A DNA stretch of 64,000 nt from a virus (taxonomy: Duplodnaviria; Caudoviricetes), in IMG/VR virus record IMGVR_UViG_3300015608_004971. One strand, 5' to 3'. The first letter of the stretch is position 1. Each line of letters begins with the position of its first letter. The translations under genes were made by a program, and so were the position numbers. Positions 4,428 through 36,560 of the stretch are shown in pieces. The notes below the pieces were generated by a model that searched no databases, was not told the origin of the DNA, and saw nothing but the letters and a program-made list of their open reading frames with translations.

Positions 4428-4456
4428 CCACTAAGGCGTCAAGAAAAAAGTAGCCC

Positions 4457-4485
4457 TTGACAGGACACACGAGGGCTGTTATACT
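4457..4485 (+). promoter_or_regulatory. sigma70-type promoter upstream of groEL
   Basis: TTGACA-17-TATACT with TGn extension. Confidence 0.8.
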
Positions 4486-4554
4486 CAGTCAGACTAGCTT
4501 GACCGCTGGCTAGACTGTGTGGACAGCCCATTATCTAATTAGTTTAGAGGAAAA

Positions 4555-6108: not shown

Positions 6109-6170
6109 ATAAACTATTTATTATGATCTTTTGATCTAAAATTATTATCATCAATTGAAGGAAAACAAGA

Positions 6171-6491: not shown

Positions 6492-6509
6492 CAATAAAAC
6501 GGATAAATA

Positions 6510-6962: not shown

Positions 6963-6970
6963 GAGGACAA

Positions 6971-7636
6971 ATGAATTATAATTTTATTCCAATCGATAAA
7001 GCCCCGACTGGCTTTAAATATAGAAAAGAATTCGAAGCAGCATATTTGAATTCACATTACGCAGGAATTCCCGATCTAGGAAGAAAAAATTGGCTTTGCG
7101 GAATGAAGATCGACCCAGACATATATAAAACAATGTATTCTGCTGATATGTCGGAAGAAAATTATCTCAAATCTATTATGAAATATATGACTGATAAGGT
7201 TCATGGTCGAAAATTTAGACCAATTTATGGAAATTGTGTATATTTTAAACATAGACTTGTCAAGAGCAATTCAAAAGAATGGTTTGAATTATTATTTTAT
7301 ACGAACAAAGAAGATGTTGAAGTTTTTCTTGATATTTATAAAGAATTAGGAAAAACAAAAGATGACGACGCTCAGCAAAAAGAGTTAGATAAGGCAAAAG
7401 AAGAAATGGATAAAGCGCAGCCAGATGCAGATCCAGAAAATATTATCAAATCTATCTTGAGTGGCGATAATATTCCTCAAAAAAGAAAAAGAGGCAGACC
7501 ACCAAAATCAGCATCATTTTCTTTAAAGTCGTTCAAGGATGCATCAGTTTCTCCAATGGAACAAGTTAAAAAGAATATGTCTAAAACGAACACAAATGGC
7601 CCTAAAAAAAGAGGAAGACCCAAAAAGGTACGCTAA
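6971..7636 (+). CDS. protein with two AT-hook motifs
   Basis: KRGRPPK and KRGRPKK in the C-terminal half. Confidence 0.7.
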   Translation: MNYNFIPIDKAPTGFKYRKEFEAAYLNSHYAGIPDLGRKNWLCGMKIDPDIYKTMYSADMSEENYLKSIMKYMTDKVHGRKFRPIYGNCVYFKHRLVKSNSKEWFELLFYTNKEDVEVFLDIYKELGKTKDDDAQQKELDKAKEEMDKAQPDADPENIIKSILSGDNIPQKRKRGRPPKSASFSLKSFKDASVSPMEQVKKNMSKTNTNGPKKRGRPKKVR

Positions 7637-7672
7637 TCTATTTATAATAAAGAATTAATTTTGGGGATTAAA

Positions 7673-8167
7673 ATGAATTTCAATAAATGGAAAAATTTTT
7701 TAAATGAACAAAAATATAATCCAAAAATTGGATATCATAGAACAACAATAAAAAATTTTGAATTAATAAAAAATAATGGCTTATTGATAAATCAAGATTC
7801 AAATTTTTTATTGAGCGAAAAAAATTTGATGAAAAACATATATAAAGGAAATATTCCGCTATTCTTTTCATTAGATATTGATACAAGCAGAAGATATAAA
7901 ATGGAAAATGATATTTGTTTAGTGATTGATGTTTCACATTTTAATCTATATCCAGATGTTTGGTCTTTAATAGATTTTGGTGCTTTTCTTGAAGAAGAAA
8001 GTTTCTGGTTTAAAAATCCTCCAGGATTATTAAAAGAATATGATGAGATTTATTATAATGAATTATTTGATGATAATCTTCTTATTCAAAATTGTATTTT
8101 AACAACAAAAACATTTACAATATTAAATAATATCAATAAAAATAATATTATAGAGGTTATAAAATAA
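7673..8167 (+). CDS. possible ADP-ribosyltransferase-fold protein with virion-leader-like N-terminus
   Basis: YHRT..NFELI..NGL and LFFS pattern; WKNFLNE leader. Confidence 0.4.
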   Translation: MNFNKWKNFLNEQKYNPKIGYHRTTIKNFELIKNNGLLINQDSNFLLSEKNLMKNIYKGNIPLFFSLDIDTSRRYKMENDICLVIDVSHFNLYPDVWSLIDFGAFLEEESFWFKNPPGLLKEYDEIYYNELFDDNLLIQNCILTTKTFTILNNINKNNIIEVIK

Positions 8168-8992
8168 ATGAGCAATATTTTTAAAACTTTATTCGATTGG
8201 TTTGCAACTTTATTTACAGCGGCAAACGAAACACCAAAAGAACAGCTAACAGGAATTGACAGACGCTTTCCCGAAGGTCGCGGTTTTTATATTTGGCGTC
8301 TTGAAAAATGTTATGGCGGCGATCTTGACAAAATAATTGAAAGATGTAAAAAAAGCCATATAACTTGGGTTGCAGTTAAATGTGGTGACCAAGGACGCCA
8401 ATGGAACCAATTTACGAAACAAATGGTTAAGCGATTTACCGATTCAGGAATTCGTGTTTGGGCTTGGTCATATGATACACCAACATTTTTAAAAGAACAA
8501 ACAGAAGTATATAAAAAAGTTTTAGGTATGGGTATAGATGGGGTACTGGTCAACGCAGAGCAAGAATGGAAACAATCTAATGTTGATAAAGTAGCTGCCA
8601 AATATATGGATATGCTTAGAGCAATTATTCCAAAAGATAAAGGATTGGCACATGCTCCATTTGCATTAATTTCATATCATCAAAAATTTCCATATACAGA
8701 ATTTGGAAAAAAGTGTGATTGGGTTTCACCACAAATGTATTGGTATGCATTTGGCTGGTCAGTATCAGATGCGCAAGATAAAACACAAACATCGTGGAAT
8801 CGTTTTGCAACACAAAAACCAGAAGCAAATAAACCATTAGTCATGGGCGGCTCATCATGGGGAAAAACAAAACCAGCAGATTGTATAGCATTTGAGAAAT
8901 TAAGAAAATTATCGGGCGATAAAGCTGTTCTTTATTGGGAATTTTCCCAAACAGATGAAAAAGTATTTGATATATTTACTCAACCTTATTAG
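8168..8992 (+). CDS. TIM-barrel glycoside hydrolase, probable endolysin
   Basis: GRGFYIW, WVAVK, VWAW, VNAEQE, PQMYW pattern of GH18/GH25-like cell-wall hydrolases. Confidence 0.6.
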   Translation: MSNIFKTLFDWFATLFTAANETPKEQLTGIDRRFPEGRGFYIWRLEKCYGGDLDKIIERCKKSHITWVAVKCGDQGRQWNQFTKQMVKRFTDSGIRVWAWSYDTPTFLKEQTEVYKKVLGMGIDGVLVNAEQEWKQSNVDKVAAKYMDMLRAIIPKDKGLAHAPFALISYHQKFPYTEFGKKCDWVSPQMYWYAFGWSVSDAQDKTQTSWNRFATQKPEANKPLVMGGSSWGKTKPADCIAFEKLRKLSGDKAVLYWEFSQTDEKVFDIFTQPY

Positions 8993-9023
8993 TTAAGGTT
9001 CATGGATTTTTTTGAGTTTTGCG

Positions 9024-9061
9024 GCGGTGATTGGTCGGCCTTTCACCGCTTTTTCTTTTTT
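9024..9061 (+). terminator. intrinsic terminator
   Basis: GCGGTGA...TCACCGC followed by T tract. Confidence 0.65.
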
Positions 9062-9073
9062 AAAGAGGAAATT

Positions 9074-10192
9074 ATGACAAATAAAATTATTATGCAAAAA
9101 GATGATAAAAAATGGGAATGTGAAGTCTCTGAAAATAAAATAAAATATGTTTGGGGCCAAATCAATGGAATTATGCAAGAGTTAAATGTAGAGATCGACT
9201 CTGGAAAAAACATTGGCAAAAAAAATGAAACAACAAAGGAACAACAAGCTATAGTTGAGGCAAAAGCAAAAATTAACAATAAAATAAAAGAAGGATATTT
9301 GATTATATCAAATACATTTACAGAAAAATTTAAAAAACAAAGAGAATGTCCACAACCAATGCTTGCAAAAGAATGGAAAGCAAGAGAGCGTTTTATAAAT
9401 GATGGCGATGAATTCTTTTATCAACCAAAACTTGATGGAATTCGTTGTATTGCTAATGTGGCAACTGGAAAACTTTATTCAAGAAAGGGTGAAGAGATAA
9501 CCACAATGCAGCATATTGCAAAAGAAATTATGTCAATTGGAATATCATCTAAAATTCCTCTATCATCTGATTGGCTTGATGGCGAGCTTTATATACATAA
9601 AAAAGGTTTTCAATCTTTAATGAGTATTATTCGTTCAAACGTTAACCATCACGAAGAAGCAGAAACTATTGAATATCATGTATATGACTATATTGATGAA
9701 GCAAATGGCTTCAAAGATAGAAATTTAAAATTAAAAAATTTATTTAAAAACAATGATTTTGCTCATATTAAATTTGTTGAGGGAAAATCAATTTTAATTA
9801 ATGAAATTGAACTTGTTCATGATAAATGTGTCGAAGAAGGCTATGAAGGAATAATGATTCGCCTTGCTAATGCACCATATGAAACAAAGCGATCATCAAG
9901 TCTCTTGAAATATAAAAAATTTATTCAAGAAGAATATCCAATTATTGGCTTCTCAAGAGAGAAACATAATGAGACTTTGGCTGCTCTAATTCTCCAAACA
10001 AATGATGGAAAACAATTTGAAGCAACACCTTCAATGACAGATGATGAAAAACTTGATATTTGGCAAAATCAAGATAAATATAGAAATAATGAATTTTTTG
10101 CGACAGTAAAATTTCAAGAATATACGGACGATAAAAAGCCACGTTTTCCAGTGTGTATTGGCTTAAGACATATGTCTGACATGGACAATTAA
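9074..10192 (+). CDS. ATP-dependent DNA ligase with N-terminal WGR-like domain
   Basis: QPKLDGIR, LDGELY, YHVYD, YEGIMIR, LLKYK, PRFP; SD GAGG before ATG 9074. Confidence 0.93.
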   Translation: MTNKIIMQKDDKKWECEVSENKIKYVWGQINGIMQELNVEIDSGKNIGKKNETTKEQQAIVEAKAKINNKIKEGYLIISNTFTEKFKKQRECPQPMLAKEWKARERFINDGDEFFYQPKLDGIRCIANVATGKLYSRKGEEITTMQHIAKEIMSIGISSKIPLSSDWLDGELYIHKKGFQSLMSIIRSNVNHHEEAETIEYHVYDYIDEANGFKDRNLKLKNLFKNNDFAHIKFVEGKSILINEIELVHDKCVEEGYEGIMIRLANAPYETKRSSSLLKYKKFIQEEYPIIGFSREKHNETLAALILQTNDGKQFEATPSMTDDEKLDIWQNQDKYRNNEFFATVKFQEYTDDKKPRFPVCIGLRHMSDMDN

Positions 10193-10193
10193 T

Positions 10194-10466
10194 ATGTTTT
10201 TTCTTATCACAAATGGAAATAATTATGATAATGCAGATAGAGTAAATCTCTTTTATAAAAAAGACAAAACACACTATAAAAGAAATGATGGACCAGCTTG
10301 GAATTTATTTTATCCATGTTATGTTCTTTATAACAAAAAAAATCGTCTTCTAATTTATAATCGTGATGACCCTTTATATGAGGCAAACACTACAGATAAA
10401 ATAAAAGAAAAATTTTATTTATTAAATTCAATAATTTTTAAAGAAATTAAAATTGATATAATTTAG
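10194..10466 (+). CDS. RxDG mini-gene family member
   Basis: KRNDGPA; ends DII-stop. Confidence 0.7.
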   Translation: MFFLITNGNNYDNADRVNLFYKKDKTHYKRNDGPAWNLFYPCYVLYNKKNRLLIYNRDDPLYEANTTDKIKEKFYLLNSIIFKEIKIDII

Positions 10467-10590: not shown

Positions 10591-10653
10591 TTGACAGCCA
10601 GCGCCAGCCGTGCTATCATGCTTCGAGCTTCACAGCGGCAACGATAAAGCCGC
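10591..10653 (+). promoter_or_regulatory. repeated sigma70 promoter plus leader hairpin, copy 1
   Basis: TTGACA-gccagcgccagccgtgc-TATCAT, then GCGGC-aacgataaa-GCCGC. Confidence 0.9.
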
Positions 10654-17573: not shown

Positions 17574-17638
17574 TTGACAGCCAGCGCCAGCCGTGCTATC
17601 ATGCTTCACGCAACACAGCGGCAGCACAATAAAGCCGC
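17574..17638 (+). promoter_or_regulatory. repeated sigma70 promoter plus leader hairpin, copy 2
   Basis: Identical TTGACA-17-TATCAT block; GCGGC...GCCGC hairpin. Confidence 0.9.
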
Positions 17639-17656: not shown

Positions 17657-18055
17657 ATGAGCAGCAGCAGCAACAAAAACGAAACAATCCTGAAGCTTGT
17701 TGCCGAGCTTAAGGAATCGGCAATTGACGGAATTTCAATTAACGTTTCGGAGAAGCCGGATGGATCGGTTTCTGTGGTTTTTCACCAATCTTCGACTGAA
17801 ATCGATCTTGATTTGCCAACAGAAATCGGTTGTTATGGTACTAAATATTGGAGAAACAAAAAGGGAAATCTTCATCGTGACGGCGATCTGCCTGCCGTTA
17901 TTTATGCTGATGGAACCAAATCTTATTATAAGAACGGAAATTGCCATCGCGAGGGCGGAAAGCCCGCAATGATCACAAAAAAACGATATGAATATTGGAT
18001 CGATGGAAAGCACATTTTGACTGTCAATCATAAGAATGGCGTTGTTGAGGTTTGA
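17657..18055 (+). CDS. HRDGDLPA-repeat protein (2 repeats)
   Basis: Conserved N-domain and C-cap YEYWIDGKHILTVNHKNGVVEV. Confidence 0.9.
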   Translation: MSSSSNKNETILKLVAELKESAIDGISINVSEKPDGSVSVVFHQSSTEIDLDLPTEIGCYGTKYWRNKKGNLHRDGDLPAVIYADGTKSYYKNGNCHREGGKPAMITKKRYEYWIDGKHILTVNHKNGVVEV

Positions 18056-18109
18056 TAAGTAAAAATTATTGAACAATATTTTATTCATTGAAAAATAACA
18101 GGAATAAAG

Positions 18110-18679
18110 ATGGATACAGCCAATAATAGCAAGCTAAATCTTCGTCAAAAGTATAAAGATTGGACAGTAGATTTGGTTCGCAAGGATATTCAAAAGACAG
18201 TATTTCCATATTCATGCTTCATGTTTAATTGGAGCGGTGACATGAATATGGCATCAGCGATTAGATCCGGAAATGGTCTTGGTTGTAAAGAATTCTTTTA
18301 TTTTGGAAAGAAAAAGTGGGATAGAAGAGGTTCTGTCGGAACACACCATTATTCGATGGTTTCTTTTGTTAAGGAGATGGACGATTTTTTGAAAATGAAG
18401 GAAAAATATCATTTCATTGGAATTGATAATAATCATAACTTTAAATGCCATGAGATGCAAGATTTCCTTTGGGAAACAAAGGACGGCAAAGAACCTCTTC
18501 TTATTTTCGGTGAAGAAGGCGGCGGCCTTACAGAAGACATTCTTTCGATTTGTGATGATATCGTTTTCATTCCAATGTTTGGAAGCGTTCCAAGCTTTAA
18601 TGTATCATGTTGCGCTTCTATGGTAATGTATGATATTGTTACGAAAAAATTCCTCAACAAAGAGAAAGAGGATAAGTAA
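18110..18679 (+). CDS. TrmH/SpoU-family SPOUT RNA methyltransferase
   Basis: NMASAIRS, IFGEEGGGL, IPMFG..SFNVS. Confidence 0.9.
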   Translation: MDTANNSKLNLRQKYKDWTVDLVRKDIQKTVFPYSCFMFNWSGDMNMASAIRSGNGLGCKEFFYFGKKKWDRRGSVGTHHYSMVSFVKEMDDFLKMKEKYHFIGIDNNHNFKCHEMQDFLWETKDGKEPLLIFGEEGGGLTEDILSICDDIVFIPMFGSVPSFNVSCCASMVMYDIVTKKFLNKEKEDK

Positions 18680-18683
18680 TTAA

Positions 18684-19364
18684 ATGATTTTCCAATTAGG
18701 AAATTCAACGCTTCAAACAAGCGATAAAGAACTGGCCGAAAGATGGACAATTCCAGAATTGCGCTATTCTGAGCTTGAAATAGCTTTATCTTTCAATTAT
18801 ACTTACGAATTTATTAGTTGCTATAAAAGATGCAGAAAAAAAGAAAGAAAGTTTTTGATTTATAAATCAAAAATTATGCAGATTGAAAAATGGTGGTATT
18901 TTGAGAATAAAGAGTCTCAAAATGAAATTGAATGCTTATTTGTCAATAATGATGGAATGATAGAATCACAATTTTTTTGGTCGACAAATCGGCCTTCATC
19001 GCTTGATATGATTGAGGCTGGAAAGAAAGGTCATGTTGGAAGCGTTTTTGTTCAATCATCAACATTGACTGGGCATTCTGAATATCTTGACGAATGCTTC
19101 TTTACTAAAGATGAACAAATAAAATATATTCAGCATGAATTTAATAATGGAAAAATGCCAAAATTAACTCATAAAGAGAAATATTTAAAACAGCGTCTTT
19201 CTGAAAGAAATCGTTGGTTGTATGCCAACAGAGCATCCGTAAATGTTTCTTATATTGTAAAAAAAGAACATCTAAAGGCTTATTCAAACTCAATGAGAAC
19301 ATTTGCTCGTCATAACGTGAAATATTCACCAAGAAATGTATTTGAAAATAATCATATTATTTAA
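18684..19364 (+). CDS. hypothetical protein, paralog of 28627..29316
   Basis: Shared ERW, IEC, FWS, VF.Q...LGHS.YL, A.VNVS. Confidence 0.75.
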   Translation: MIFQLGNSTLQTSDKELAERWTIPELRYSELEIALSFNYTYEFISCYKRCRKKERKFLIYKSKIMQIEKWWYFENKESQNEIECLFVNNDGMIESQFFWSTNRPSSLDMIEAGKKGHVGSVFVQSSTLTGHSEYLDECFFTKDEQIKYIQHEFNNGKMPKLTHKEKYLKQRLSERNRWLYANRASVNVSYIVKKEHLKAYSNSMRTFARHNVKYSPRNVFENNHII

Positions 19365-19791
19365 GAAAGTTAAAAATGAATTTTAACATCCCTTTCTTTA
19401 ATTAAAGAAAGCTTTTTTATAGGTTGATTTCTTCTTAAAATTTGTTTATCATGTTGCATATTTATAAGCATAGATATGCAGGTGAAAATAATGAACAAAG
19501 ATTTAAGATTATTGGAAGCAGAATCATATATAGGAAAAATTTTTAGAAATAAAAGCGGCGGTGTAAATCTGCTTGATCTTTATATAATAATAACAGATGC
19601 AAAACAGAGAGACAATACAATGATTTCATCATCAATTTCAGCTAGAGATAAAATTTTTAAGGATTCAATAACAATTTCCTATATTGAATTGTCTAATGAC
19701 GAAAAGCCTTCTTTCGTAGAAGAATGTCCATTATCTTATATTAAATATTCTTTTGTTGAAGTTTAAAAATCTTCTATAAAAAAGAGAAAAA

Positions 19792-20430
19792 ATGTCACAA
19801 GAACTTTCTGTTGTTAAAGATTCTGATAAAGATTTTGATTTTGTAAGCAAAAAAATTCCAATTAATGAAGGCGAATTGGAGCAATATATTATTGCTGTGC
19901 TTCAAAAAGCCGAAGAAGATTACTTAAAAAGTTCTATCAAAAAAGAAAAAGAACAAACTGATGAGCTAAAAAAGCATATTGTATTCTTTTATGATAGAAC
20001 ATATTATGAAGAAAATGTGGCCTTTGTTCTCAATAGAAAAGGCACTCCGATTCAATCGGGGAATATCAAATATAATGTTTTGATGACAAAATATATAAAA
20101 ACGCAAAATTTTAGAATTGTTTGCTCTCTTTGCAAAGCACCCCTCTTTTTTGCAAAAGAATCGAATTCAAATTTTTGGAGTTTTATGCCTGAAAAAGGAA
20201 ATGTTAATGCTAGATGTAATGCTTGTCATAGAAAGGCAACCATGCTATTTCAAACATATTTAGAAGAATTTGATAAAGAAGTCGTTCTAAGGCAACCAAA
20301 AGATAATAATTTTTTATCTAGCCAAAGTGATGGTAATAATATAGCTAATCAAAACAACGATAAACAAATTGAGATTATCCGTCATGCAATTAAAAGTCTA
20401 AAAAAGAGCTCCCACCTTGTGGAATTTTAA
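19792..20430 (+). CDS. zinc-finger-containing hypothetical protein
   Basis: CSLC...CNAC. Confidence 0.65.
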   Translation: MSQELSVVKDSDKDFDFVSKKIPINEGELEQYIIAVLQKAEEDYLKSSIKKEKEQTDELKKHIVFFYDRTYYEENVAFVLNRKGTPIQSGNIKYNVLMTKYIKTQNFRIVCSLCKAPLFFAKESNSNFWSFMPEKGNVNARCNACHRKATMLFQTYLEEFDKEVVLRQPKDNNFLSSQSDGNNIANQNNDKQIEIIRHAIKSLKKSSHLVEF

Positions 20431-20796
20431 ATTGTAATGGCCAATGCGATGATTTTAGACATGTGCCAGTTTTACCAATTGAAGATAAAATAGAAGAAAA
20501 CTCTAAAAAACGCAATGATATTGTTGTTAAAGCTTCTTTTATTGGCTTTGGAATACTAACCATTGTCAGTTTTTTAAAGCTATTTTTCTTTATGTAATTT
20601 AGGTTGCTAAAAATGCCAAATTGGACTAATGATGAAGGCGAAAGTATGTTTGCAAAATTGATATGCAAGCGTTGCCAAAATATTTTCGATACAGATAAAA
20701 AAGGCGAAATTCCAACCCATAAATGTCTTAATGGCGATTTATATAAATCGGAATCATCTAATAAAGGACACATCATCCAGTTAAGGTCAAAATAAA

Positions 20797-21375
20797 ATGA
20801 ATAATGAATTAAAAAATAAAATTGATTTAAAAAGAGAAAATGCAAAATTAAATATTGATAAAGTATTTGATAATTTCATTACAGTTTTAAATTATCTTGA
20901 AAGCAATAATTTAGAGCTTTTTAAATTCATCAATTTTATTATGCAACATAATCCATCTTTTAGAGATGAAATCTCTTTAGAAGGAAGAGAACTATCTCTA
21001 TATATAAGAAATCAATGGTTTTTTATGATGGTAATACCAAATATTACTAATAACGATCCATATAAATTTATTGATGACCTTTCAAATTTTATTTCGTATA
21101 TAACTGATGATATGGAATTCACCATAAAGTGGTGTACCAATATTCCAAGCGCCATAAATAAAAAAGATAAGATGATTGTGGTGCACAAACCATATAATAT
21201 TGATGAAAATATATATCCTGTCTTATTTGAGGATAATTCAGAAATAGCTACACAAAATGTAGACATTTTTCTTCAGGCACTAAAATACAATGAAGATGTT
21301 ATAAATCATGAAACACCTTATGAAAAATTTCTTAAAATAAAAAAAGAACGAGATAATAAGGATAAGGAGCCATAA
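20797..21375 (+). CDS. hypothetical protein
   Basis: 192-aa ORF tightly packed with neighbours. Confidence 0.65.
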   Translation: MNNELKNKIDLKRENAKLNIDKVFDNFITVLNYLESNNLELFKFINFIMQHNPSFRDEISLEGRELSLYIRNQWFFMMVIPNITNNDPYKFIDDLSNFISYITDDMEFTIKWCTNIPSAINKKDKMIVVHKPYNIDENIYPVLFEDNSEIATQNVDIFLQALKYNEDVINHETPYEKFLKIKKERDNKDKEP

Positions 21376-21377
21376 AT

Positions 21378-21890
21378 ATGATTCTATGTATTGATGTTTA
21401 TTATGACGAACAAAATGACCTAAACAAAATAGGTTGTGTTCTTCTTAAAAACTTTGAAGATGAAAAGCCATATAAAACATATGAATTGTTTAAATATGGT
21501 GTTCATCCTTACATTTCTGGTGAATTTTATAAACGAGAAATGCCATGCATTCTTTATGCTTTAAATCATATTTATAATGATGGTGAAAAAGTCGACATTA
21601 TTATTGTTGATGGCTATTGCACGCTAAAATACGATCATATTGGTCTAGGCGAGCATCTTTTTCAAGAATTAAATGAGAATATTATTGTTATTGGTATTGC
21701 AAAAACCTTATATAAAGGTGCTGAATATGTTATGGCTAGGAAAGGTCTATATATTACATCATCTGGCATTCCTAAAGAAAAAGCTGCAGAATATATTGAG
21801 CTTATGCACGGTAAGCACAAAAATCCATCAATCTTAAAGATTGTTGATCACCTATCTAGAGGAATTTTTAATCCTAAATTTAAATATTAA
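21378..21890 (+). CDS. nfi: endonuclease V family
   Basis: IDVYY, PYISGEFYKREMP, VDGY, GLGEHL, IGIAK. Confidence 0.88.
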   Translation: MILCIDVYYDEQNDLNKIGCVLLKNFEDEKPYKTYELFKYGVHPYISGEFYKREMPCILYALNHIYNDGEKVDIIIVDGYCTLKYDHIGLGEHLFQELNENIIVIGIAKTLYKGAEYVMARKGLYITSSGIPKEKAAEYIELMHGKHKNPSILKIVDHLSRGIFNPKFKY

Positions 21891-21921
21891 ATAGCTTATA
21901 TGGCATGTCAAGCTCTGACGC

Positions 21922-21984
21922 TTGACAGCCAGCGCCAGCCGTGCTATCATGCTTCAAGCAACACAGCGGCAACGATAAAGCCGC
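21922..21984 (+). promoter_or_regulatory. repeated promoter plus leader hairpin, copy 3 (empty: no gene follows)
   Basis: Full promoter, hairpin and AAGGA, immediately followed by another promoter. Confidence 0.9.
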
Positions 21985-22014
21985 AGCAAGGAAAGCCCCA
22001 AGCGAAGAAGAGGC

Positions 22015-22043
22015 TTGACAGCCAGCGCCAGCCGTGCTATCAT
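22015..22043 (+). promoter_or_regulatory. repeated promoter, copy 4
   Basis: Identical TTGACA-17-TATCAT; leader hairpin GCAGC-aatcat-GCTGC. Confidence 0.9.
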
Positions 22044-22094
22044 GCTTCAAGCAACGCAGCAATCATGCTGCGCCGATACACGAGACAAGCAAAA

Positions 22095-22364
22095 ATGGAA
22101 ATCGAAAAAATCTCCTTTCCTAAAGTTAAAGATTTTATGCGGCATCATAATTTGATGCCCAAACTACAATTCAATGTCGTTTATTCGGGCTGGGATAGCG
22201 ATAATACTGGTTGGGTTTCTTACGATCGGGAAGGAAATAAAAAATATGTAATGACATGCTGTGGTGTTCCTTATTTTGAGGAAGAATCTAATGTTAGAAA
22301 TCTTATTCAAGATTATCTTTCTTGGATTAAAGAAACAGAAGAAGCTTTGAATTTTAAAATGTAA
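22095..22364 (+). CDS. hypothetical protein
   Basis: ATG 22095 downstream of promoter copy 4; the longer track ORF runs through promoter DNA. Confidence 0.7.
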   Translation: MEIEKISFPKVKDFMRHHNLMPKLQFNVVYSGWDSDNTGWVSYDREGNKKYVMTCCGVPYFEEESNVRNLIQDYLSWIKETEEALNFKM

Positions 22365-22370
22365 ATAAAC

Positions 22371-22447
22371 GGACGAATGGCTCGATTGGTCAAGGCAGCG
22401 GTCCTATAAACCGTCTTATATGGGTTCAAATCCCATTTCGTCCACCA
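22371..22447 (+). tRNA. tRNA with centred anticodon TAT (probable tRNA-Ile UAU), atypical C33
   Basis: Acceptor GGACGAA/TTCGTCC-A-CCA, anticodon arm GCGGT-CCTATAA-ACCGT, T arm ATGGG-TTCAAAT-CCCAT. Confidence 0.85.
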
Positions 22448-23022
22448 TATTGGAAATAAATATGATCACCTTCGATTCTCTTCTAGACGAAGTCTTCTTT
22501 CTTGCAAAAGAAAGGAATGGTGAGGTGATTGAAGCTTTTATTTCTTCTTTAAGCGATATTGAGCAAAAGCAAGAGACCAATTTTATTATTAATAATAAAA
22601 TTGATAATGAAAGACATAATTTTCTTCTTGAATTGATAGAAGATATTGTAAATGATAAAATTTTTTCATGTGTTGAAGAAGAATTTAAATATTCTGATAT
22701 AATTTTTAATATTAACATCGATCTCTTTATTAGAGTAGAAATTTATACTGTTCTAAGTAATTGTAAAAACATTACAATTAAAAATAACAAAACGATTCCA
22801 TCGGAATGTGTCATGTTTAATGCAAAAAAAAACATTATATAATGAATTGAGATCTCTTTCTTTTTCGGAGAAAGATATAGAACATTATATGACGCAAATT
22901 CCTTCTTGGTGGACGCATATAAAGCGCAAAATCATTAATATGAACGAATGGTCATATGATAGAGATGGTTTTATGGCTGAAGCCAAATTTATTATTCTTA
23001 ATTCAAAGGAAACATCATTGAT

Positions 23023-23619
23023 ATGAATGAATTGACTTTAAAAATTATTGCCGAGCTTAAGGCATTGGCCGTCGACGGCCTTTCCATTGACATTTCGGAG
23101 AAAACAGACGGATCGGTTTCGGTTGTTTTTCACCAATCTTCGGAAGAGATCGATCTTGATCCGCCGACAGAAATTAATTGTTTTGGCTCCAAATATTGGA
23201 AGGATAAAGACGGACTGCTCCACCGCGACGGTGATTTGCCTGCCGCTATTTATGCTGATGGTAGCAAATATTATTATAAGAACGGAAATTGCCATCGCGA
23301 CGGTGATTTGCCTGCCATTGAACATGCTGATGGCACCAAATGTTATTATAAGAACGGAAATTGCCATCGCGACGGTGATTTGCCTGCCATTGAACATGCT
23401 GATGGCACCAAATGTTATTATAAGAACGGAAAATGCCATCGTGACGGCGATTTGCCAGCAATTGAATATGCTAATGGCGAAAGAGATTATTATAAAAATG
23501 GCAAGCCTCACCGCGACGGCAATAAGCCTGCGATTATCAGAAAAAATCGATATGAATATTGCCTTGATGGAAAGCTTATTTTGATTGTGAAGCATAAGAA
23601 TGGCGTTGTCGAGATTTAA
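23023..23619 (+). CDS. HRDGDLPA-repeat protein (5 repeats; altered N-terminus, no promoter of its own)
   Basis: 3' half nearly identical to 50397..51008; contains a tandem 72-nt duplication. Confidence 0.9.
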   Translation: MNELTLKIIAELKALAVDGLSIDISEKTDGSVSVVFHQSSEEIDLDPPTEINCFGSKYWKDKDGLLHRDGDLPAAIYADGSKYYYKNGNCHRDGDLPAIEHADGTKCYYKNGNCHRDGDLPAIEHADGTKCYYKNGKCHRDGDLPAIEYANGERDYYKNGKPHRDGNKPAIIRKNRYEYCLDGKLILIVKHKNGVVEI

Positions 23620-23653
23620 GCATGGTCAAAAAAGGCCCAAGCGAAGAAGAGGC

Positions 23654-23716
23654 TTGACAGCCAGCGCCAGCCGTGCTATCATGCTTCGAGCAACACAGCG
23701 GCAACGATAAAGCCGC
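23654..23716 (+). promoter_or_regulatory. repeated promoter plus leader hairpin, copy 5
   Basis: Identical block; lies upstream of 23756 and the MoxR gene. Confidence 0.9.
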
Positions 23717-23755
23717 AACAATGTAGCAAAATGCTGCGAAGAAGAGAGAGGAACA

Positions 23756-24133
23756 ATGTCGGATTCAATTTTTTCGGATTTGAGTAAATCAGTCGCAGAA
23801 TCACTTAAGGGACGGAACGGTGAAGTTCTTGATTCTCTTAAGAAGAAAATGGTTGAAGAAGTACTTGCAAAGCGAGTTACTATTCTCTCTTGGGCCTTTT
23901 CAAGGCGAAAAGAATTAGATGGAAAGTCGCGATCCCTTCAGGAAGGTGATATTAAGCATTTTGATGCTAATGGCGTTGTTGTTTCGTCTCTGTTCTCAAA
24001 GGAACGTCTTGAGAATAAGAAGCAAGCCGAACAAGAGCTAAAGAAATTTGATGAAGCCCTCGATAAGGCTATGAATGAGGCCAATTGGGATTCTTTGGAA
24101 AAGCTTATACCAAATGGTGGCGCTAAGCAATAA
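23756..24133 (+). CDS. hypothetical helical protein
   Basis: 125-aa ORF, SD GAGG. Confidence 0.75.
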   Translation: MSDSIFSDLSKSVAESLKGRNGEVLDSLKKKMVEEVLAKRVTILSWAFSRRKELDGKSRSLQEGDIKHFDANGVVVSSLFSKERLENKKQAEQELKKFDEALDKAMNEANWDSLEKLIPNGGAKQ

Positions 24134-24136
24134 AAA

Positions 24137-24165
24137 TTTATCAAACAAACGGTTTGTTTGATAAA
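24137..24165. repeat. 29-bp palindrome
   Basis: TTTATCAAACAAAC-G-GTTTGTTTGATAAA, perfect 14-bp arms. Confidence 0.9.
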
Positions 24166-24226
24166 GATAAGTTTGTAGCGGGTATTGCCGCATTTTTATC
24201 TAAAACACTTTTCAAGGTGAAATAGA

Positions 24227-25399
24227 ATGATTACTTTTGATACGTTTATTAGAATCGCTCCAGCTATTATGGAGCAGCGTTTGCCAATTCTTCTTCGTGG
24301 TCGTCACGGTATCGGCAAATCTGAAGTTGTGCGACAAATTGCAAAAAATGCTGGCTTGAATTATATTTCACGTCGTATCTCTCAAATGACAGAAGGCGAT
24401 TTGATTGGTTTGCCTATTGTTGATGGTGATTCGACAAAGTGGCTGCCACCTGATTGGTTTATGCAAGCATGTCAAAAGCCTTGCCTTCTATTTCTTGACG
24501 AAGTGGATCGTGGCTCAATCGAGGTTCGTCAAGCTGTATTTGAGCTAAACGATAGCCGTTGTCTCAATGGTTTTCATCTCCATAAGGATACTGTTGTGTT
24601 TGCCGCAGTAAATGGCGGTAAACATGGCGAAAACTATCAAGTAGGAACAATGGATCCTGCTGAACTTGATCGTTATGCCGTTTTTGATCTTGAGCCAGAC
24701 GAAGCTGATTGGCTTCGTTGGGCAAAAATGGATAATGAAGAAACTGGAAGACAGAATATTCATCCTCTGATTGTATCTTATATTGATAAGCATCACAAAT
24801 CTCTTGAACATCGCGGAGATGTTGAGCCCGGAAAAGTTTATCCTTCTCGTCGTTCTTGGAAAAGATTGAGTGATGTTGTAACTGGCGCATCCATGCTAGA
24901 TAATGGTGGAAGCAATTTGCTATCTCATGCCGCAACAGCATTTATTGGTCTGACGATTGCAACCGAATTTGCTGATTTTATTAAAAATTATAAGATCATG
25001 ATTTCGCCAGAGGATATTTTGACAGGCAAAGCTCTTAAACTTCTGGAAGCTTTGAAGAAAAAGGGCGAATCTTTGCCAGATTCTGAGCAGATGGCGACGA
25101 TGGAAAGATTCATCGACAATCTCCAGATTATGGACGACAATAATATTGATAAATATTTGGTTAATAACCAAAAAACTTTTTCCAACGTAGGAAACTTCTT
25201 TTCAACTTTCTCTTCAGAAAAAATCGTGGCCTTGATCTCAAAGGTTGCTGCTGCAACGCAAAAGAATACAAACCTCAAGAAGAAGGCGCCAGATATTCTG
25301 CAAAAGCTTCTTAATGCCGAGTTTGAAATCGTTGATGCGGCAGGAAACAAAGTGAAGTCTTCACTACAGAAGACAAATTCAAAGAATTTGAGAATTTAA
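24227..25399 (+). CDS. MoxR-like AAA+ ATPase
   Basis: GRHGIGKS, DLIGLP, LFLDEVDR, AAVN, MDPAELDR, PSRRSW. Confidence 0.9.
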   Translation: MITFDTFIRIAPAIMEQRLPILLRGRHGIGKSEVVRQIAKNAGLNYISRRISQMTEGDLIGLPIVDGDSTKWLPPDWFMQACQKPCLLFLDEVDRGSIEVRQAVFELNDSRCLNGFHLHKDTVVFAAVNGGKHGENYQVGTMDPAELDRYAVFDLEPDEADWLRWAKMDNEETGRQNIHPLIVSYIDKHHKSLEHRGDVEPGKVYPSRRSWKRLSDVVTGASMLDNGGSNLLSHAATAFIGLTIATEFADFIKNYKIMISPEDILTGKALKLLEALKKKGESLPDSEQMATMERFIDNLQIMDDNNIDKYLVNNQKTFSNVGNFFSTFSSEKIVALISKVAAATQKNTNLKKKAPDILQKLLNAEFEIVDAAGNKVKSSLQKTNSKNLRI

Positions 25400-25518
25400 T
25401 AGTTCTCCATAAATTTCTGATCGAAATTACAGAATAAAATTGTTAATTTCAAATACAGTGTTCATGAATGATTAATAGATTCCTTTCTGCATTTGGAATT
25501 AAAATTAAATGCAGCAAA

Positions 25519-25599
25519 ATCGGCATGGTGGAATGGTAGACACAACGCACTTAAAATGCGTCGATTAATATCGTGCGAGTTCAAGTCTCGCTGCCGATA
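25519..25599 (+). tRNA. tRNA-Leu(TAA), CCA not encoded
   Basis: ATCGGCA/TGCCGAT-A acceptor, ACGCA-CTTAAAA-TGCGT, long variable arm, GCGAG-TTCAAGT-CTCGC. Confidence 0.93.
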
Positions 25600-26890
25600 C
25601 TAAAACGAAGGAAACGATTGTCATGAGACAATGCCCAAAATATGAAGATTATAGACTAGAAGATCTTCTTGTAAAAGAACATAAAAAAGATACAGAGATT
25701 TTAATCAAAAAAGGCAAAGAACACCCTTTCAATCAGGGTGAAATTTCTCTCTCATTAGAGCAACTAAAAGAGATTTATTTAATAGCCGAGAAGTATCATA
25801 GAAATGATAATCAAAAGATTGAGATCCGTCTTTATAACGGAGGATTTGCTTTTAAAATTTTAAGACATACAATTTCACATGAAATGAAATATCACAAAAG
25901 ATACGATGAAATTCTCTATCAAAAAGATATTTCCGAATGGCAAAAAGAAAAAGAAGCAGAGAATGCTCTCAAATGAAAGACGGAATCATATTCGCTAGAG
26001 AACATATTTTAATGGAACAGATTTTATCCATTATTAGACAAAAATATAAATATGAGCTCTTTATATGGCATTATTATATAATAGTGCCATATCGTCCACT
26101 ATCATTGTTAAACGACGAATTGCCAACATCAGCAATAAAATTATGAGAATAGATGATAAACTTGCAGTAACAGTTTATCCAGATGGTTGTTCAAAAACTT
26201 TCAGCCATTATACTGATGCAATTAAATATTTTTTACATACTCAAGGAATAAAAACAAATGAATGTTGAATATTTTTTAGTTCTTGTCGATAAACGAATGA
26301 CAGATCACCCAAATGAAAGAAAAGGACAAGCTGCTTTTAATTTATTGTGTTTTGATATTGGTCGGGACGATCTTGCTGATTTGGTCCGCTCTACAAAATA
26401 TGATCCATTTTTTGATAATGCAAGAATGGACGATTTCATTCATTTCCTTGTTGAAAAAAACTTCCTATTTCGTCAGTAATAGAATCTGCAACATGAATAT
26501 TATACAAAAATTATCAACACCTTATATTAGACAAGAAATTGTAAAGCGAGTAGATAAAGTTAATTATCTATCATTAGATGCTTCTAATATGAAAATTGCA
26601 CAAAATGTATCTTCTTGGAAGCGCAATTCGAAGCAAAAATTGAAAAACGCCATAAATGATTATGGTGTCTCTTCAGTCCAAGAATTTTTGGAATGTGGCG
26701 ATGAAACAGAATTGTTTTGCAAACCCAATAGTATTACAGAGAAATGTATTGTTCGTCATTTTGTAATTGCTGATTTGACTTTGGATTGTACCTGCATTAC
26801 AGACGAGACAGACCAAAATATTTTAGTTTTCATTTGGCATCAAGATTAATTAGAAATACTCACAGACATATATCGCAATGGAGTTAATTA

Positions 26891-28144
26891 ATGATTGTCA
26901 ATTGTAGAATTATGTCTATGCGCAGACATGGCAAAATTGCTTTTGCTCAATTTAAGGAATTTTCCAATCACAATAATACTGCTTCAATTACTCAAGCAGT
27001 TTTTATGAAGCAAAATCTTGAAGACTATGATTTGATTTTGTCTTCATTAAAGATTGGTTGTATAGTAACACTTAGGGGTGAAGAATATGTAACTTCTACA
27101 GGTGTTCTCTCTTTGAGCGTTGTGAAGTGCGATATAACTTACATTCCAAATGTTGGATTTCCAACAGAACATTTTGGGATTGAAAATGAAAATCTTAAAA
27201 GACGTCATAGGTTTCTAAGTTGTCTTTATAATGACAGTGTAAAGACAACTTTTTTGAAGAGATTTGAAATTATTAATAACATTAGACAATTTTTAATTTC
27301 AAATTCTTTCATTGAATTTGAAACTCCAATTATGTCTTCACATGCTTCAGGAGCTCTTGCAAAGCCTTTTGTTACACACTACAACGCATATGAAACAGAT
27401 TTTTATCTTAGAATTGCGCCAGAAACTTTTCTAAAGAGAATTTTGGCAGGTGGTTTTGATAACATTTTTGAAATTGGAAAAAACTTTCGTAATGAAGGAG
27501 TAGATCCATCTCATTTGCAAGAATTTACTGTTGTTGAATGGTATAGCGCTTTCAAAAATTATAAAGACAATCTTGAATTATTCAAGTCTATGTTAGACTT
27601 TTTGATTAAAGATAAAATTGTTACATTTGAAAATGTTCAACTTGATTTTTCTAATTGTCAAACTCTGACTTATAGAGAATGTTTTGAAAAGTATGCGCCA
27701 GATTTTGATCCATTTTGTAAAGAGAATAGTGAAAAATCTGTTGATCTTGTTTTCAAGACAAGAATTAGACCAAATATTGTACAGCCCACTTTTGTAATCG
27801 ATTATCCGTCTTTTATGTCTCCAATGGCTAAGAGATCTGATCAAGATGAAAATATTTGTGAGCAATGGCAATTTATAGTCAATGGATGGGAAATCGTTAA
27901 GTGTTACACTGAACTTGTTGATGCTACTCTTCAAAGACAGCTTCTTGAAGAGCAAATGCAACAAAAGATTAAAGCGAATAACGCAGATGATGAATTTATG
28001 GAATTAGAAGAAGACTTTCTATATACAATGGAATATGGAATTCCGCAATCCTCTGGCGTAGGCGTGGGTATCGATAGACTAGTTGCAATCTTGACGAACA
28101 ACTCATCTTTGAGAGATGTTGTATTTTTTCCTGCTGTTCTATGA
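26891..28144 (+). CDS. lysS: class II lysyl-tRNA synthetase (compact)
   Basis: RRHGKIAF OB fold, EFETP, GALAKPF.TH, YLRIAPE, FRNEG, H..EFT, YGIP...G.G.GIDRL. Confidence 0.92.
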   Translation: MIVNCRIMSMRRHGKIAFAQFKEFSNHNNTASITQAVFMKQNLEDYDLILSSLKIGCIVTLRGEEYVTSTGVLSLSVVKCDITYIPNVGFPTEHFGIENENLKRRHRFLSCLYNDSVKTTFLKRFEIINNIRQFLISNSFIEFETPIMSSHASGALAKPFVTHYNAYETDFYLRIAPETFLKRILAGGFDNIFEIGKNFRNEGVDPSHLQEFTVVEWYSAFKNYKDNLELFKSMLDFLIKDKIVTFENVQLDFSNCQTLTYRECFEKYAPDFDPFCKENSEKSVDLVFKTRIRPNIVQPTFVIDYPSFMSPMAKRSDQDENICEQWQFIVNGWEIVKCYTELVDATLQRQLLEEQMQQKIKANNADDEFMELEEDFLYTMEYGIPQSSGVGVGIDRLVAILTNNSSLRDVVFFPAVL

Positions 28145-34643: not shown

Positions 34644-34706
34644 TTGACAGCCAGCGCCAGCCGTGCTATCATGCTTTGAGCAACACAGCGGCAACGATAA
34701 AGCCGC
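34644..34706 (+). promoter_or_regulatory. repeated promoter plus leader hairpin, copy 6
   Basis: Identical block. Confidence 0.9.
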
Positions 34707-34722: not shown

Positions 34723-35184
34723 ATGAGCAGCCAAAACGAAACAATCCTTAAGCTCGTTGCCGAGCTTAAAGCATCAGCAATTGACGGAATTTCAATTAAC
34801 GTTTCGGAGAAGCCGGATGGATCGGTTTCGGTCGTTTTCTGCCGACCTTCGGCAGAAAACGTTCTTGATCCGCCGACAGAAATCGATTGTGTTGGTAACA
34901 AATTTTGGAAGAATAAAGGCGGATTGCGCCATCGTGACGGTGATTTGCCTGCCGTTATTTATGCTGATGGCAGCAAAGTTTATTATAAGAACGGAAAGCT
35001 TCATCGTGACGGTGATTTGCCTGCCTTTGAACATGCTGATGGCACCAAATATTATTATAAGAACGACCTTTTTCACCGCGACGGCGGAAAGCCTGCCGTG
35101 ATTAGCCAATATAAATACCAATATTGGCTTGACGGAAAGCTTATTTTGACCGTGAACCATAAGAATGGTGTTGTCGAGATTTAG
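34723..35184 (+). CDS. HRDGDLPA-repeat protein (3 repeats)
   Basis: ATG 34723 after AAGGA; conserved N-domain and C-cap. Confidence 0.9.
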   Translation: MSSQNETILKLVAELKASAIDGISINVSEKPDGSVSVVFCRPSAENVLDPPTEIDCVGNKFWKNKGGLRHRDGDLPAVIYADGSKVYYKNGKLHRDGDLPAFEHADGTKYYYKNDLFHRDGGKPAVISQYKYQYWLDGKLILTVNHKNGVVEI

Positions 35185-35210
35185 GCAAAGCACCACTAAG
35201 GGAAAGAAAA

Positions 35211-35489
35211 ATGACCACACCCAATAATATTGTTGCGCCGACACAATCAGAAATCAGTGATAATGATCCGCCGACAGAAATCGATCATTTTGGCAATAAA
35301 TGTTGGAAGAATGAAGAAGGGAATCTTCATCGCGATGGTGATCTGCCCGCTATTGAATGGGCAAGCGGTCTCAAATATTATTATAAGGAAGGAAAGCTTC
35401 ATCGCGACGATGGGAAGCCTGCAATTGAATATGCCGATGGATCTGTAGAATTTTGGGAAAATGGAATCAAGCAGCCAGAAAGAATTTAA
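35211..35489 (+). CDS. short HRDGDLPA-repeat protein (2 repeats, different termini)
   Basis: Shares DPPTEID junction DNA and repeats with the family. Confidence 0.85.
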   Translation: MTTPNNIVAPTQSEISDNDPPTEIDHFGNKCWKNEEGNLHRDGDLPAIEWASGLKYYYKEGKLHRDDGKPAIEYADGSVEFWENGIKQPERI

Positions 35490-35810
35490 TACAAAAAGGA
35501 TTTCATCTTAAGATGATAAGAGGTCCGCCATGGTAAATCCAGACGAATACATCGTGAACGTTTATTATTTTGATGGCGAAGAACAAAAAATTGTGCTGCC
35601 AATCAAAAATAGAAAAATGCCATCCTTAAACGAGATTATTTATCATACACGAGGATTAAAGGAAATTGAAAAAATTATTTCCGAGGGTGGCCGGGTTATC
35701 TTTTCTGTGACAAATTTGGACTTTGACAATAAAGAAGAATAATATTCGCAAAGAAAAAAGATAAAAAGGTTTTATCAATATTTCTTTGTATATTTTTTAG
35801 GACAACAAAA

Positions 35811-36560
35811 ATGACTAGCAAAAAAAGTGCGTCACAACAGCAAGTAATTCCAACTGTGGATAATCCCTTTCCAAATATCGAAAAGGATGTATTTATCGAT
35901 CTAGAATGGCGTCACGACGAAGAAATCGAGAATGTTCACGGCAAATACACATATTATCAGGGCGTTCCCTATCTTTATTTCGGTCCTCGGGCCTGCTATA
36001 AAGAAGGCGATATTATTACTTGGATGATGAGCAATAAAGCGACTGGAATTGTGATTTCTGTTGATCGTCAAGGGCTTAAGGCGGCCCATGATGAATTGTA
36101 TAAGTTCAATACTTATCTTTGGGTAAAGATTATTAATGCTGAATATCCCGATTGGGAAGCTGAAACGGAAAACAAAGAAGTTCCCGATTTCGTTGTCGAA
36201 ACTGTAAATGGAATCCCTGTTTCGCAGCTTTCGCATCTTTCGCCAGATTGGATTCCCATTGATCCCAAAAATGGTGTCCGTTATGACGGAAAGACTGTAT
36301 CGTTCCCATATTGGGATAAGTCGCACGTTCAGCAAGTAAACAAAGAACGATTTGAAATGCGCCTCAGAACGATCAAAAAGTATGGTTCTGGTGCTGTTGA
36401 TTTGTTTTTTGATCGATATGCAGAGATTGGCTTGAATATGCCAAAACTGGTATTGGACAACGTTTCACCGACTTTGATTAAAGATTGTCTTTCGGAAGAT
36501 GTTTTGGAAAAGTACTTTCCAGAACTTGCAAAAAACATCAAAGACAATCAGCAACAATAA
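35811..36560 (+). CDS. hypothetical protein
   Basis: 249-aa ORF with more GC-rich codon usage than background. Confidence 0.75.
   Translation: MTSKKSASQQQVIPTVDNPFPNIEKDVFIDLEWRHDEEIENVHGKYTYYQGVPYLYFGPRACYKEGDIITWMMSNKATGIVISVDRQGLKAAHDELYKFNTYLWVKIINAEYPDWEAETENKEVPDFVVETVNGIPVSQLSHLSPDWIPIDPKNGVRYDGKTVSFPYWDKSHVQQVNKERFEMRLRTIKKYGSGAVDLFFDRYAEIGLNMPKLVLDNVSPTLIKDCLSEDVLEKYFPELAKNIKDNQQQ

Follow-up and report, generated by a model that had tools for sequence, protein, structure and literature searches.

The genes in a 64-kb stretch of an uncultured tailed phage genome (IMG/VR record IMGVR_UViG_3300015608_004971) fall into two classes, set apart by whether they use the leucine codon TTA and the isoleucine codon ATA, which are the codons matched by the only two tRNAs encoded there. 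The window, meaning this whole 64-kb stretch, has a guanine-plus-cytosine (GC) content of 31%, and every gene lies on the + strand, tightly packed and read with table 11. Among the 118 + strand genes of our set (four starts were moved downstream of a promoter element that they overlapped), 22 make up a depleted class, in which TTA accounts for 5 of 386 leucine codons and ATA for 8 of 365 isoleucine codons. A rich class of 62 genes uses TTA for 319 of 733 leucines and ATA for 308 of 815 isoleucines. Taken together, the two codons supply 13/751 of the leucine and isoleucine codons in the depleted genes versus 627/1548 in the rich ones, and the fraction (TTA+ATA)/(Leu+Ile) per gene is bimodally distributed, well outside anything that chance would give. 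Window-wide, TTA is 26% of leucine and ATA 22% of isoleucine codons; in the rich class each is about 40%. Nine genes for repeat proteins are paralogs and not independent data, and tests were therefore repeated without them.

The original prediction, made from the segment 17657-25599 and a few genes beyond it, had reported that two repeat-protein genes lack both codons and that a third gene has one of each, counts that were all reproduced. It had also judged by eye that the MoxR and VWA genes are depleted and that groEL, the IMPDH-like gene, and a set of mini-genes use both codons freely, and the per-gene counts agree. In the lines below, and in paired fractions throughout unless one codon is named, TTA among leucine codons is followed by ATA among isoleucine codons.

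17657-18055, + strand: repeat-protein gene; TTA 0/8, ATA 0/10
61436-61906, + strand: repeat-protein gene; TTA 0/12, ATA 0/13
53482-54159, + strand: gene with TTA 1/17, ATA 1/17
24227-25399, + strand: MoxR-like AAA ATPase; TTA 0/38, ATA 0/29
54187-55581, + strand: VWA/DUF2201 metallopeptidase gene; TTA 0/31, ATA 1/31
952-1992, + strand: IMPDH-like gene; TTA 15/25, ATA 12/33
4555-6108, + strand: GroEL; TTA 16/39, ATA 23/59
55661-57001, + strand: the most TTA/ATA-rich large gene, immediately 3' of a terminator; TTA 23/52, ATA 11/34

The pattern reaches well past 17657-25599. The gene for NAMPT, for example, has TTA at 0/50 and ATA at 0/33 despite a GC content at third codon positions (GC3) of 0.28. 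The mini-genes make free use of both codons, and rich mini-genes are dispersed within depleted units.

Is the depletion simply a matter of base composition? In the depleted genes, TTA occurs 1.0 times per 1000 codons in frame versus 33 and 23 times in the other two frames, and ATA 1.6 times versus 41 and 15. Because the two triplets are scarce solely in the reading frame, the target of selection is translation and not the DNA itself. Avoidance of a DNA motif, such as a restriction site, is ruled out, since both triplets occur at normal levels out of frame. The shift is also narrow. Between depleted and rich non-paralog genes, the odds ratio is 0.01 for TTA, 0.04 for ATA, 0.31 for AGA, and 0.32 for AAA, while CTA, GGA, GCA, CCA, TCA, GAA, CAA, TAT, TTT, and AAT change little. 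There is in addition a mild general shift of the depleted genes to C- or G-ending codons (ATC, CGT, AAG, and CTG). The earlier suggestion that early genes are generally adapted to the host therefore fails: apart from the repeat family, strong shifts are limited to TTA, ATA, AGA, and AAA, and TAT, TTT, AAT, GAA, and CAA are used as in the remaining genes.

Local GC3, which the original prediction had named as the explanation to be overcome, does not fully account for the depletion either. A two-class binomial mixture beats a logistic model on the GC3 of the other codons (negative log-likelihood, 337.5 versus 399.0), and the logistic model leaves six genes with a lower-tail p of <1e-3. When no classes are assumed, the TTA and ATA fractions of the 53 non-paralog genes of at least 120 codons correlate with a rho of 0.82 (p 4e-14). 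This value is the same after GC at four-fold sites is removed, and neither codon is significantly correlated with four-fold-site GC. Frame specificity, the mixture fit, codon specificity, and the four-fold-site control together rule GC3 out. The first principal component of codon use chiefly reflects AGA, TTA, ATA, and AAA. AGA and AAA co-vary with TTA and ATA more weakly (partial rho, about 0.55) and are halved in the depleted genes, although no tRNA-Arg(UCU) or tRNA-Lys(UUU) is found within the 64-kb window. Nor does the gene family impose the avoidance, since five other AT-rich, phage-like contigs carry NAMPT homologues with ordinary use of TTA and ATA. As a separate observation, in two JGI metagenome contigs of 39% GC (at 3431-6258 and 806-3633), TTA and ATA are wholly absent from a Nudix-domain gene, NAMPT, and a small gene (0/25, 0/18; 0/32, 0/35; 0/7, 0/3), and genes beside them use ATA. 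The two-class habit may thus exist in another lineage.

Where do the depleted genes lie? A 29-nt promoter occurs nine times in the window, eight times in identical form, with 0 copies expected by chance. It consists of TTGACA, a GC-rich and invariant 17-nt spacer, and a TG-extended TATCAT. Four further sites resemble it in type, and the sites are located as follows.

10591..10619, + strand: promoter copy 1
17574..17602, + strand: promoter copy 2, preceding repeat-protein gene 17657 and SpoU methylase gene 18110
21922..22043, + strand: promoter copies 3 and 4 in tandem (21922, 22015), preceding a small open reading frame (ORF) and tRNA-Ile
23654..23682, + strand: promoter copy 5, preceding gene 23756, the MoxR-like gene, and tRNA-Leu
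34644..34672, + strand: promoter copy 6
50316..50344, + strand: promoter copy 7
53399..53427, + strand: promoter copy 8, with the -10 hexamer TATTAT
61354..61382, + strand: promoter copy 9
42367..42394, + strand: 12/12 consensus promoter with TG extension, preceding the gene for a CCA-adding enzyme
58903..58931, + strand: 11/12 promoter with a TGCTAT extended -10, preceding depleted genes 58978 and 59297
57625..57653, + strand: weaker promoter candidate, TTGCAA-17-TAATAT with TGC, preceding an IleRS-tail gene
4457..4485, + strand: promoter-like site, TTGACA-17-TATACT, TG-extended, 11/12, preceding GroEL

On the gene map, each of these sites except that of GroEL has one to five depleted genes directly downstream. 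The link also holds when codon counts play no part in defining the classes. With the repeat-protein paralogs left out and genes divided only by whether they start at most 1500 nt after one of the nine repeated promoters, TTA (odds ratio, 0.21; p 2e-14) and ATA (0.27; p 6e-11) are the two most depleted of 59 codons. The odds that the top two ranks would be exactly the two codons matched by the tRNAs are 1 in 1711, in line with the earlier claim that the avoidance is specific to the codons of the two phage tRNAs. Likewise, 10 of the 12 first non-paralog genes behind promoter loci belong to the low class, versus a background of 26% (p 5e-5). The proposal that promoter-proximal genes avoid both codons is thereby supported in the main; it does not extend to GroEL, which is rich, or to two depleted blocks that lack a promoter.

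Regarding the promoters themselves, a (C/G)TGCTA extended -10 is common to all the strong ones (the nine copies plus 42367, 57625, and 58903), and several of the nine copies have an inverted repeat of the spacer upstream. The invariant spacer and the flanking inverted repeat suggest a site for a common regulator or gene conversion. The 42367 promoter is probably the start of a mostly depleted unit of ~8 kb that reaches about 50261. GroEL has its own TG-extended, sigma70-like promoter with a GC-rich leader of 70 nt (4457-4554), and the site at 4457 carries TGTTATACT.

The original prediction held that the window has only two tRNAs, with anticodons TAT and TAA, both downstream of copies of the repeated promoter, and this is indeed the arrangement. 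The two tRNA genes and the genes around them are listed here.

22371..22447, + strand: tRNA-Ile, anticodon UAU, anticodon loop CC-UAU-AA (C33), CCA encoded (ARAGORN; Rfam tRNA, 54.5 bits)
25519..25600, + strand: tRNA-Leu, anticodon UAA, long variable arm, ordinary anticodon loop, no encoded CCA (ARAGORN; Rfam, 58.3 bits)
17657..18679, + strand: depleted pair, a repeat protein (0/8, 0/10) and a SpoU-family RNA methylase (0/11, 0/10)
22095..22364, + strand: small depleted ORF between the tandem promoters and tRNA-Ile (0/5, 0/4)
22462..23026, + strand: first genes past tRNA-Ile, ATA used (5/24, 3/8)
23756..25399, + strand: depleted genes upstream of tRNA-Leu, 23756 (1/14, 1/4) and MoxR-like (0/38, 0/29)
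25623..28144, + strand: genes past tRNA-Leu with no terminator between, TTA used (4/12, 4/8, 4/20, 5/34)
26891-28144, + strand: compact lysyl-tRNA synthetase (LysRS), the last gene of 25623..28144 (TTA 5/34)

Both tRNA genes sit inside promoter-headed units, 330-1870 nt behind promoters of the nine-copy type. At the isoleucine locus, the order is tandem promoters 21922/22015, small clean ORF, tRNA-Ile; at the leucine locus, it is promoter 23654, two clean genes, tRNA-Leu, and then, 22 nt on and without a terminator, the next gene. Codon use changes across the tRNA genes. TTA is used at 1 of 57 positions upstream versus 15 of 56 in the next genes downstream (p 9e-5), and the corresponding figures for ATA are 1 of 37 and 18 of 74 (p 0.003). 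As in the T4 type of relation, the phage over-uses the codons, TTA and ATA, that are matched by its own functional-looking tRNAs. The C at position 33 of the tRNA-Ile is out of the ordinary, U being near-universal there. The SpoU methylase was considered as a TrmL-type wobble methylase for the tRNA-Leu and set aside; its closest matches are TrmH and RlmB, and all are far below the family cut-offs.

What would make a phage write its genes in this way? We lean towards the reading that the early genes are written for translation before the phage tRNAs accumulate, in a host that is poor at decoding UUA and AUA. Unmodified host RNA polymerase would first read the genes behind the 11 to 12 near-consensus, TG-extended sigma70 promoters. 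These early genes, in which UUA and AUA are nearly absent and AGA and AAA are reduced, could be translated by the host tRNA pool alone. The same early transcripts would bring tRNA-Leu(UAA) and tRNA-Ile(UAU), and once these had accumulated, the majority of the genes, in which AT mutation pressure would have driven TTA and ATA to about 40% of leucine and isoleucine codons, could be translated efficiently. Any delay that comes from the need for the tRNAs may be incidental and not an evolved timer. The stronger idea of a codon-based timing switch is not upheld: with the tRNA genes behind those same putative early promoters, a simple constraint on early genes would explain the data just as well. 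That the host has a high GC content is a guess.

Several points weigh against this reading. GroEL is the one clear exception to the promoter rule, a TTA/ATA-rich gene behind a strong promoter-like site. Neither of the depleted blocks 39438-41302 and 44146-49669 has its own promoter, although the latter may be read through from 42367. A rich gene can trail a depleted one by only 4 nt without a terminator (18679/18684). For most rich genes, no conserved promoter motif was found in the window, only AT-rich words. It is the type of promoter, and nothing else, that marks the depleted genes as early; the structural genes of the phage lie outside the 64-kb window, and the equation of rich with later is therefore likewise drawn from promoters only. 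A candidate late motif, CTATTTA, is under-represented in the window, with 8 copies where about 18 would be expected. The three of these that are intergenic and on the + strand (3056, 6114, and 7638) all precede genes that use TTA and ATA, which is consistent with the timing reading, at n=3.

The main rival is expression level. Genes behind strong promoters would be the most heavily translated and would be purged of the slowest codons irrespective of timing, with weakly expressed genes drifting towards the AT-richest codons, TTA, ATA, AGA, and AAA. The promoters are near-consensus and repeated, so the genes behind them are probably highly expressed. The mild shift to ATC, CGT, AAG, and CTG fits as well, as does the presence among the rich genes of many tiny family members on which selection is likely to be weak, and the major capsid gene of a T4-like contig avoids ATA (0/34). 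We nevertheless think this explanation unlikely, in that the shift is nearly limited to the codons matched by the phage tRNAs and codon use flips exactly at the tRNA genes inside apparent single transcripts. Moreover, GroEL, purA, the IMPDH-like gene, LysRS, and the ligases are rich though unlikely to be weakly expressed or unimportant, whereas NAMPT and the Nudix enzymes are codon-clean though not usually among the top-expressed genes. Could the codons instead form an evolved gate, with most phage genes held back until the two tRNAs accumulate and the tRNA level setting the early-to-middle transition? Rich genes do follow directly after depleted genes and tRNA genes in the same apparent transcripts with no terminator, and GroEL combines a host-type promoter with codons that would depend on the tRNAs. 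Yet with the tRNA genes on the same immediate-early promoters, any delay would be short and passive, and the few TTA and ATA codons that do occur in early genes indicate that the host can read them. The evidence does not separate such a gate from a simple constraint, and we regard the gate as quite improbable.

A different kind of pressure would come from host defence. Here, the host would cut or deplete its own UUA and AUA decoders (perhaps those for AAA and AGA too), early counter-defence genes would avoid these codons, and the phage would bring resistant tRNAs along with a tRNA repair kit. The C33 and UAU anticodon of the tRNA-Ile are unlike those of bacterial tRNA-Ile2, and it has been proposed that altered anticodon loops let phage tRNAs escape anticodon nucleases (PMC10264068). 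The window also encodes two RNA ligases, PNKP-type phosphatase domains, a CCA-adding enzyme, and LysRS. The anticodon loop of the tRNA-Leu, on the other hand, is ordinary, and no nuclease is known to us that acts on both tRNA-Leu(UAA) and tRNA-Ile. All four of the affected codons are simply the AT-richest synonyms, as a mismatch with host composition would predict, and on balance evasion of defence appears to be something of a long shot. Scarcely credible is the view that the depleted genes came in recently from a GC-richer genome and have not yet drifted. Their GC content is indeed 0.35-0.45 versus 0.21-0.33, and the repeat-protein genes have GC-type codons (CGC, TCG, ACC, GCC, and CAG). NAMPT, however, has 0/83 TTA+ATA at a GC3 of 0.28, TTA and ATA use is uncorrelated with four-fold-site GC, and the depletion is in frame only. 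It is shared by more than 14 unrelated gene families, and the rich genes include the equally “cellular” GroEL, purA, and LysRS. The frame, codon, and four-fold-site tests largely refute recent import, which is rejected for the non-paralog genes, also in view of the NAMPT homologues; it may hold for the repeat-protein family alone.

The reading that early genes are written for the host tRNA pool can be carried a step further, to a proposal that we consider distinctly unlikely in its full form: a self-contained kit for decoding AUA and UUA, made by early, codon-clean genes, would license the rest of the genome and so provide a built-in, tRNA-gated early-to-middle transition. Its parts would include the tRNA-Ile(UAU) with C33, which ordinary bacterial IleRS would charge poorly (PMC3575796), and an isoleucyl-tRNA synthetase (IleRS) module presenting it to the host enzyme or shielding it. 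The tRNA-Leu(UAA) without an encoded CCA would be paired with the CCA-adding enzyme, and the SpoU methylase and LysRS might possibly belong as well.

The IleRS module deserves a closer look. Gene 57697-58635 encodes a protein of 312 amino acids that matches Pfam DUF5915 at 53.8 bits (cut-off, 27) and positions 832-998 of the 1033 in the NCBIfam MupB model. Its AlphaFold model has a predicted local distance difference test (pLDDT) score of 81.6. In Foldseek searches, the model matches 8C9D, 8WND, and 8C8V with E values of 7e-13 to 1e-12 over about 280 residues, covering the IleRS tail only. The matches include yeast IleRS with tRNA-Ile and the “C-terminal tRNA-binding domain” of Priestia IleRS2, and Arg235 of the phage protein aligns with yeast Arg999, which contacts the wobble base. 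Neither the class I (Rossmann) core nor the editing domain of IleRS is present in the product; with 312 amino acids and without these domains, it cannot be a synthetase. As judged from the sequence and the predicted fold, the protein is a C-terminal tRNA-binding module of the type-2 IleRS. Such domains of the type-2 enzymes (eukaryote-like, MupA/MupB type) are seen in PDB entries 8WND and 8C8V (PMC11685878). With them the phage protein shares the DUF5915 match, the fold match, and the wobble-contacting Arg; it differs in having no catalytic core. Only one homologue of similar length, at 46-47% identity, turned up in searches of 5.8 and 1.8 billion proteins.

What might such a module do on its own? 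E. coli IleRS is poor at charging isoleucine tRNA with the UAU anticodon, and the outcome is decided by one Arg of the C-terminal region (PMC3575796), which makes a trans-acting helper or shield a reasonable hypothesis. The protein may serve the unusual tRNA-Ile(UAU) in one of these ways. The tRNA-Ile(UAU) with C33 and the stand-alone IleRS module are thus testable parts of a decoding kit, and they bear on how UAU tRNA is charged and how misreading of AUG is prevented in bacteria.

That phage tRNAs serve the codons of later genes is a long-established principle. Phage T4 has eight tRNAs for A-ending codons, including readers of Leu-UUA and Ile-AUA, and in 1991, Cowe and Sharp reportedly tied its codon-usage classes to the time of expression. 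The data here fit an arrangement of the T4 type. The phage described here resembles T4 as an AT-rich virulent phage with UUA and AUA tRNAs, with codon use that would follow temporal class and with putative early genes on host sigma70-type promoters. It differs in that the split is near all-or-none (13/751 versus 627/1548), involves two (at most four) codons, and maps to individual promoter units with tRNA genes at the class boundaries. In addition, it has only two tRNAs in 64 kb, and its isoleucine tRNA carries a UAU rather than a CAU anticodon. What is unusual is how sharp the split is, how few codons (two, at most four) it touches, and that the tRNA genes sit where the classes meet. Among phages more widely, codon differences between early and late genes have been documented by Mioduser et al. 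in 2017 (PMC5683454), and both codon compensation by phage tRNAs (PMC10264068) and late genes that rely on phage tRNAs (PMC12482277) have been described.

Two other systems are instructive. The cultured jumbo phage PA5oct of Pseudomonas aeruginosa has 33% GC in a host of 66% GC and carries 12 tRNAs, including two Leu-TAA (PMC7318152). Comparing its early region, counted over positions 1-50000, with four virion genes gives, as shares of the codons for the respective amino acid, 0.27 versus 0.59 for TTA, 0.46 versus 0.65 for ATA, and 0.26 versus 0.71 for AGA. Like the phage described here, PA5oct is a large AT-rich phage that depends on host RNA polymerase, has a tRNA-Leu(UAA), and uses TTA, ATA, and AGA less in its early region; unlike it, PA5oct has a shallow gradient rather than an exclusion, and it is not a sequence relative. 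In Streptomyces, a single tRNA-Leu(UAA), bldA, gates a few developmental genes that contain TTA (PMC2000904). The likeness is that a rare-codon tRNA could set the time at which a set of genes is translated, and the codon, UUA, is the same. The logic is inverted, since here most genes contain the codon and it is the smaller group that avoids it. The tRNA comes in with the phage and, to judge from its place behind strong host-type promoters, is probably transcribed at once rather than late. The confinement of a gated codon to a small gene set, as with bldA, is not seen, 62 of the 118 genes being heavy users of TTA and ATA.

The two-codon split is among the cleanest read-outs of putative phage temporal classes to come from sequence only. 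Counting just these two codons in each gene tells those with host-type promoters apart from the others, and early genes of large uncultured phages could be annotated on this basis. The host so implied, one poor at decoding UUA and AUA, is a usable constraint for host prediction.

How isolated is this phage? Proteins of the window map to a contig of 198,888 nt, indicating an AT-rich uncultured phage of ~199 kb. No near-identical DNA was found in phage records, and protein identity to any phage record is at most about 50%. The promoter word was not found in IMG/VR, JGI metagenome contigs, or GTDB genomes. Protein-based locus searches gave relatives of 57% identity or less, with one such search giving no match, while NAMPT proteins that are 78-80% identical are present in Logan/ENA assemblies. 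For ten unannotated genes, PHROGs returned zero matches. The repeat proteins have weak matches to two alphaproteobacteria phages and to many metagenome proteins and are not usable as a marker of the host clade. Timing by stop codon reassignment, with in-frame stop codons in genes and a suppressor tRNA, was not encountered: the genes are intact under table 11, and both tRNAs have sense anticodons.

The auxiliary genes of the window include, for nucleotide, DNA, and RNA metabolism, those for an IMPDH/GMP reductase-like protein, a DNA ligase, two RNA ligases, PNKP-type phosphatases, purA, and a dCMP deaminase. Others encode GroEL, LysRS, the CCA-adding enzyme, a NadM-like NMNAT-Nudix protein, NAMPT, and MoxR-like and DUF2201/VWA proteins. 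The remaining depleted and rich blocks are as follows.

952..10466, + strand: TTA/ATA-rich block with the IMPDH/GMP reductase-like gene, GroEL, DNA ligase, and others; CTATTTA at 3056, 6114, and 7638
34723..36560, + strand: depleted unit behind promoter 6, two repeat proteins and 35811 (0/16, 0/17)
39438..41302, + strand: depleted block with no recognised promoter, a phosphoesterase and the NadM-like NMNAT-Nudix gene
42438..43541, + strand: CCA-adding tRNA nucleotidyltransferase, low class (4/24, 1/42)
44146..46136, + strand: NAMPT (0/50, 0/33) and a repeat protein (0/12, 0/11)
46936..48571, + strand: metallo-beta-lactamase (MBL)-fold gene (1/23, 0/15) and 47894 (2/21, 1/18)
50397..55581, + strand: two adjoining depleted units with repeat proteins, three small genes, an AAA ATPase, and the DUF2201 VWA/metallopeptidase; terminator at the end
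55620..55645, + strand: terminator-like hairpin and T-run at the depleted-to-rich switch
57697..58635, + strand: IleRS-tail gene, low class (1/24, 1/32)
58978..59722, + strand: depleted pair, 58978 and the dCMP deaminase gene 59297
61436..63104, + strand: depleted unit behind promoter 9, a repeat protein, 61945, and 62736

The depletion had also been offered as the explanation for long shadow ORFs over these genes. This is true of the repeat-protein family, in which antisense, in-register, stop-free runs cover 91% of the gene and which lacks CTA and TCA as well as TTA. It does not carry over to the other depleted genes, where the share is 32% versus 25% in rich genes.

A few minor features complete the picture. 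A GC-rich, strongly self-complementary element of 136 nt occurs twice (37425-37560 and 57512-57647) at 98% identity and has no match in Rfam; of the two copies, the second alone runs into a promoter-like site. The segment 3056-3774 is a monocistronic unit, in which CTATTTA is followed by the gene for an extremely acidic protein of 206 amino acids (GC, 0.44) and a strong terminator hairpin at 3755-3774. The protein, which is probably disordered, has no family match. Finally, ORFs on opposite strands overlap at 37659-38234 (- strand, 191 amino acids) and 37750-38289 (+ strand, 179 amino acids), and either could be the gene.

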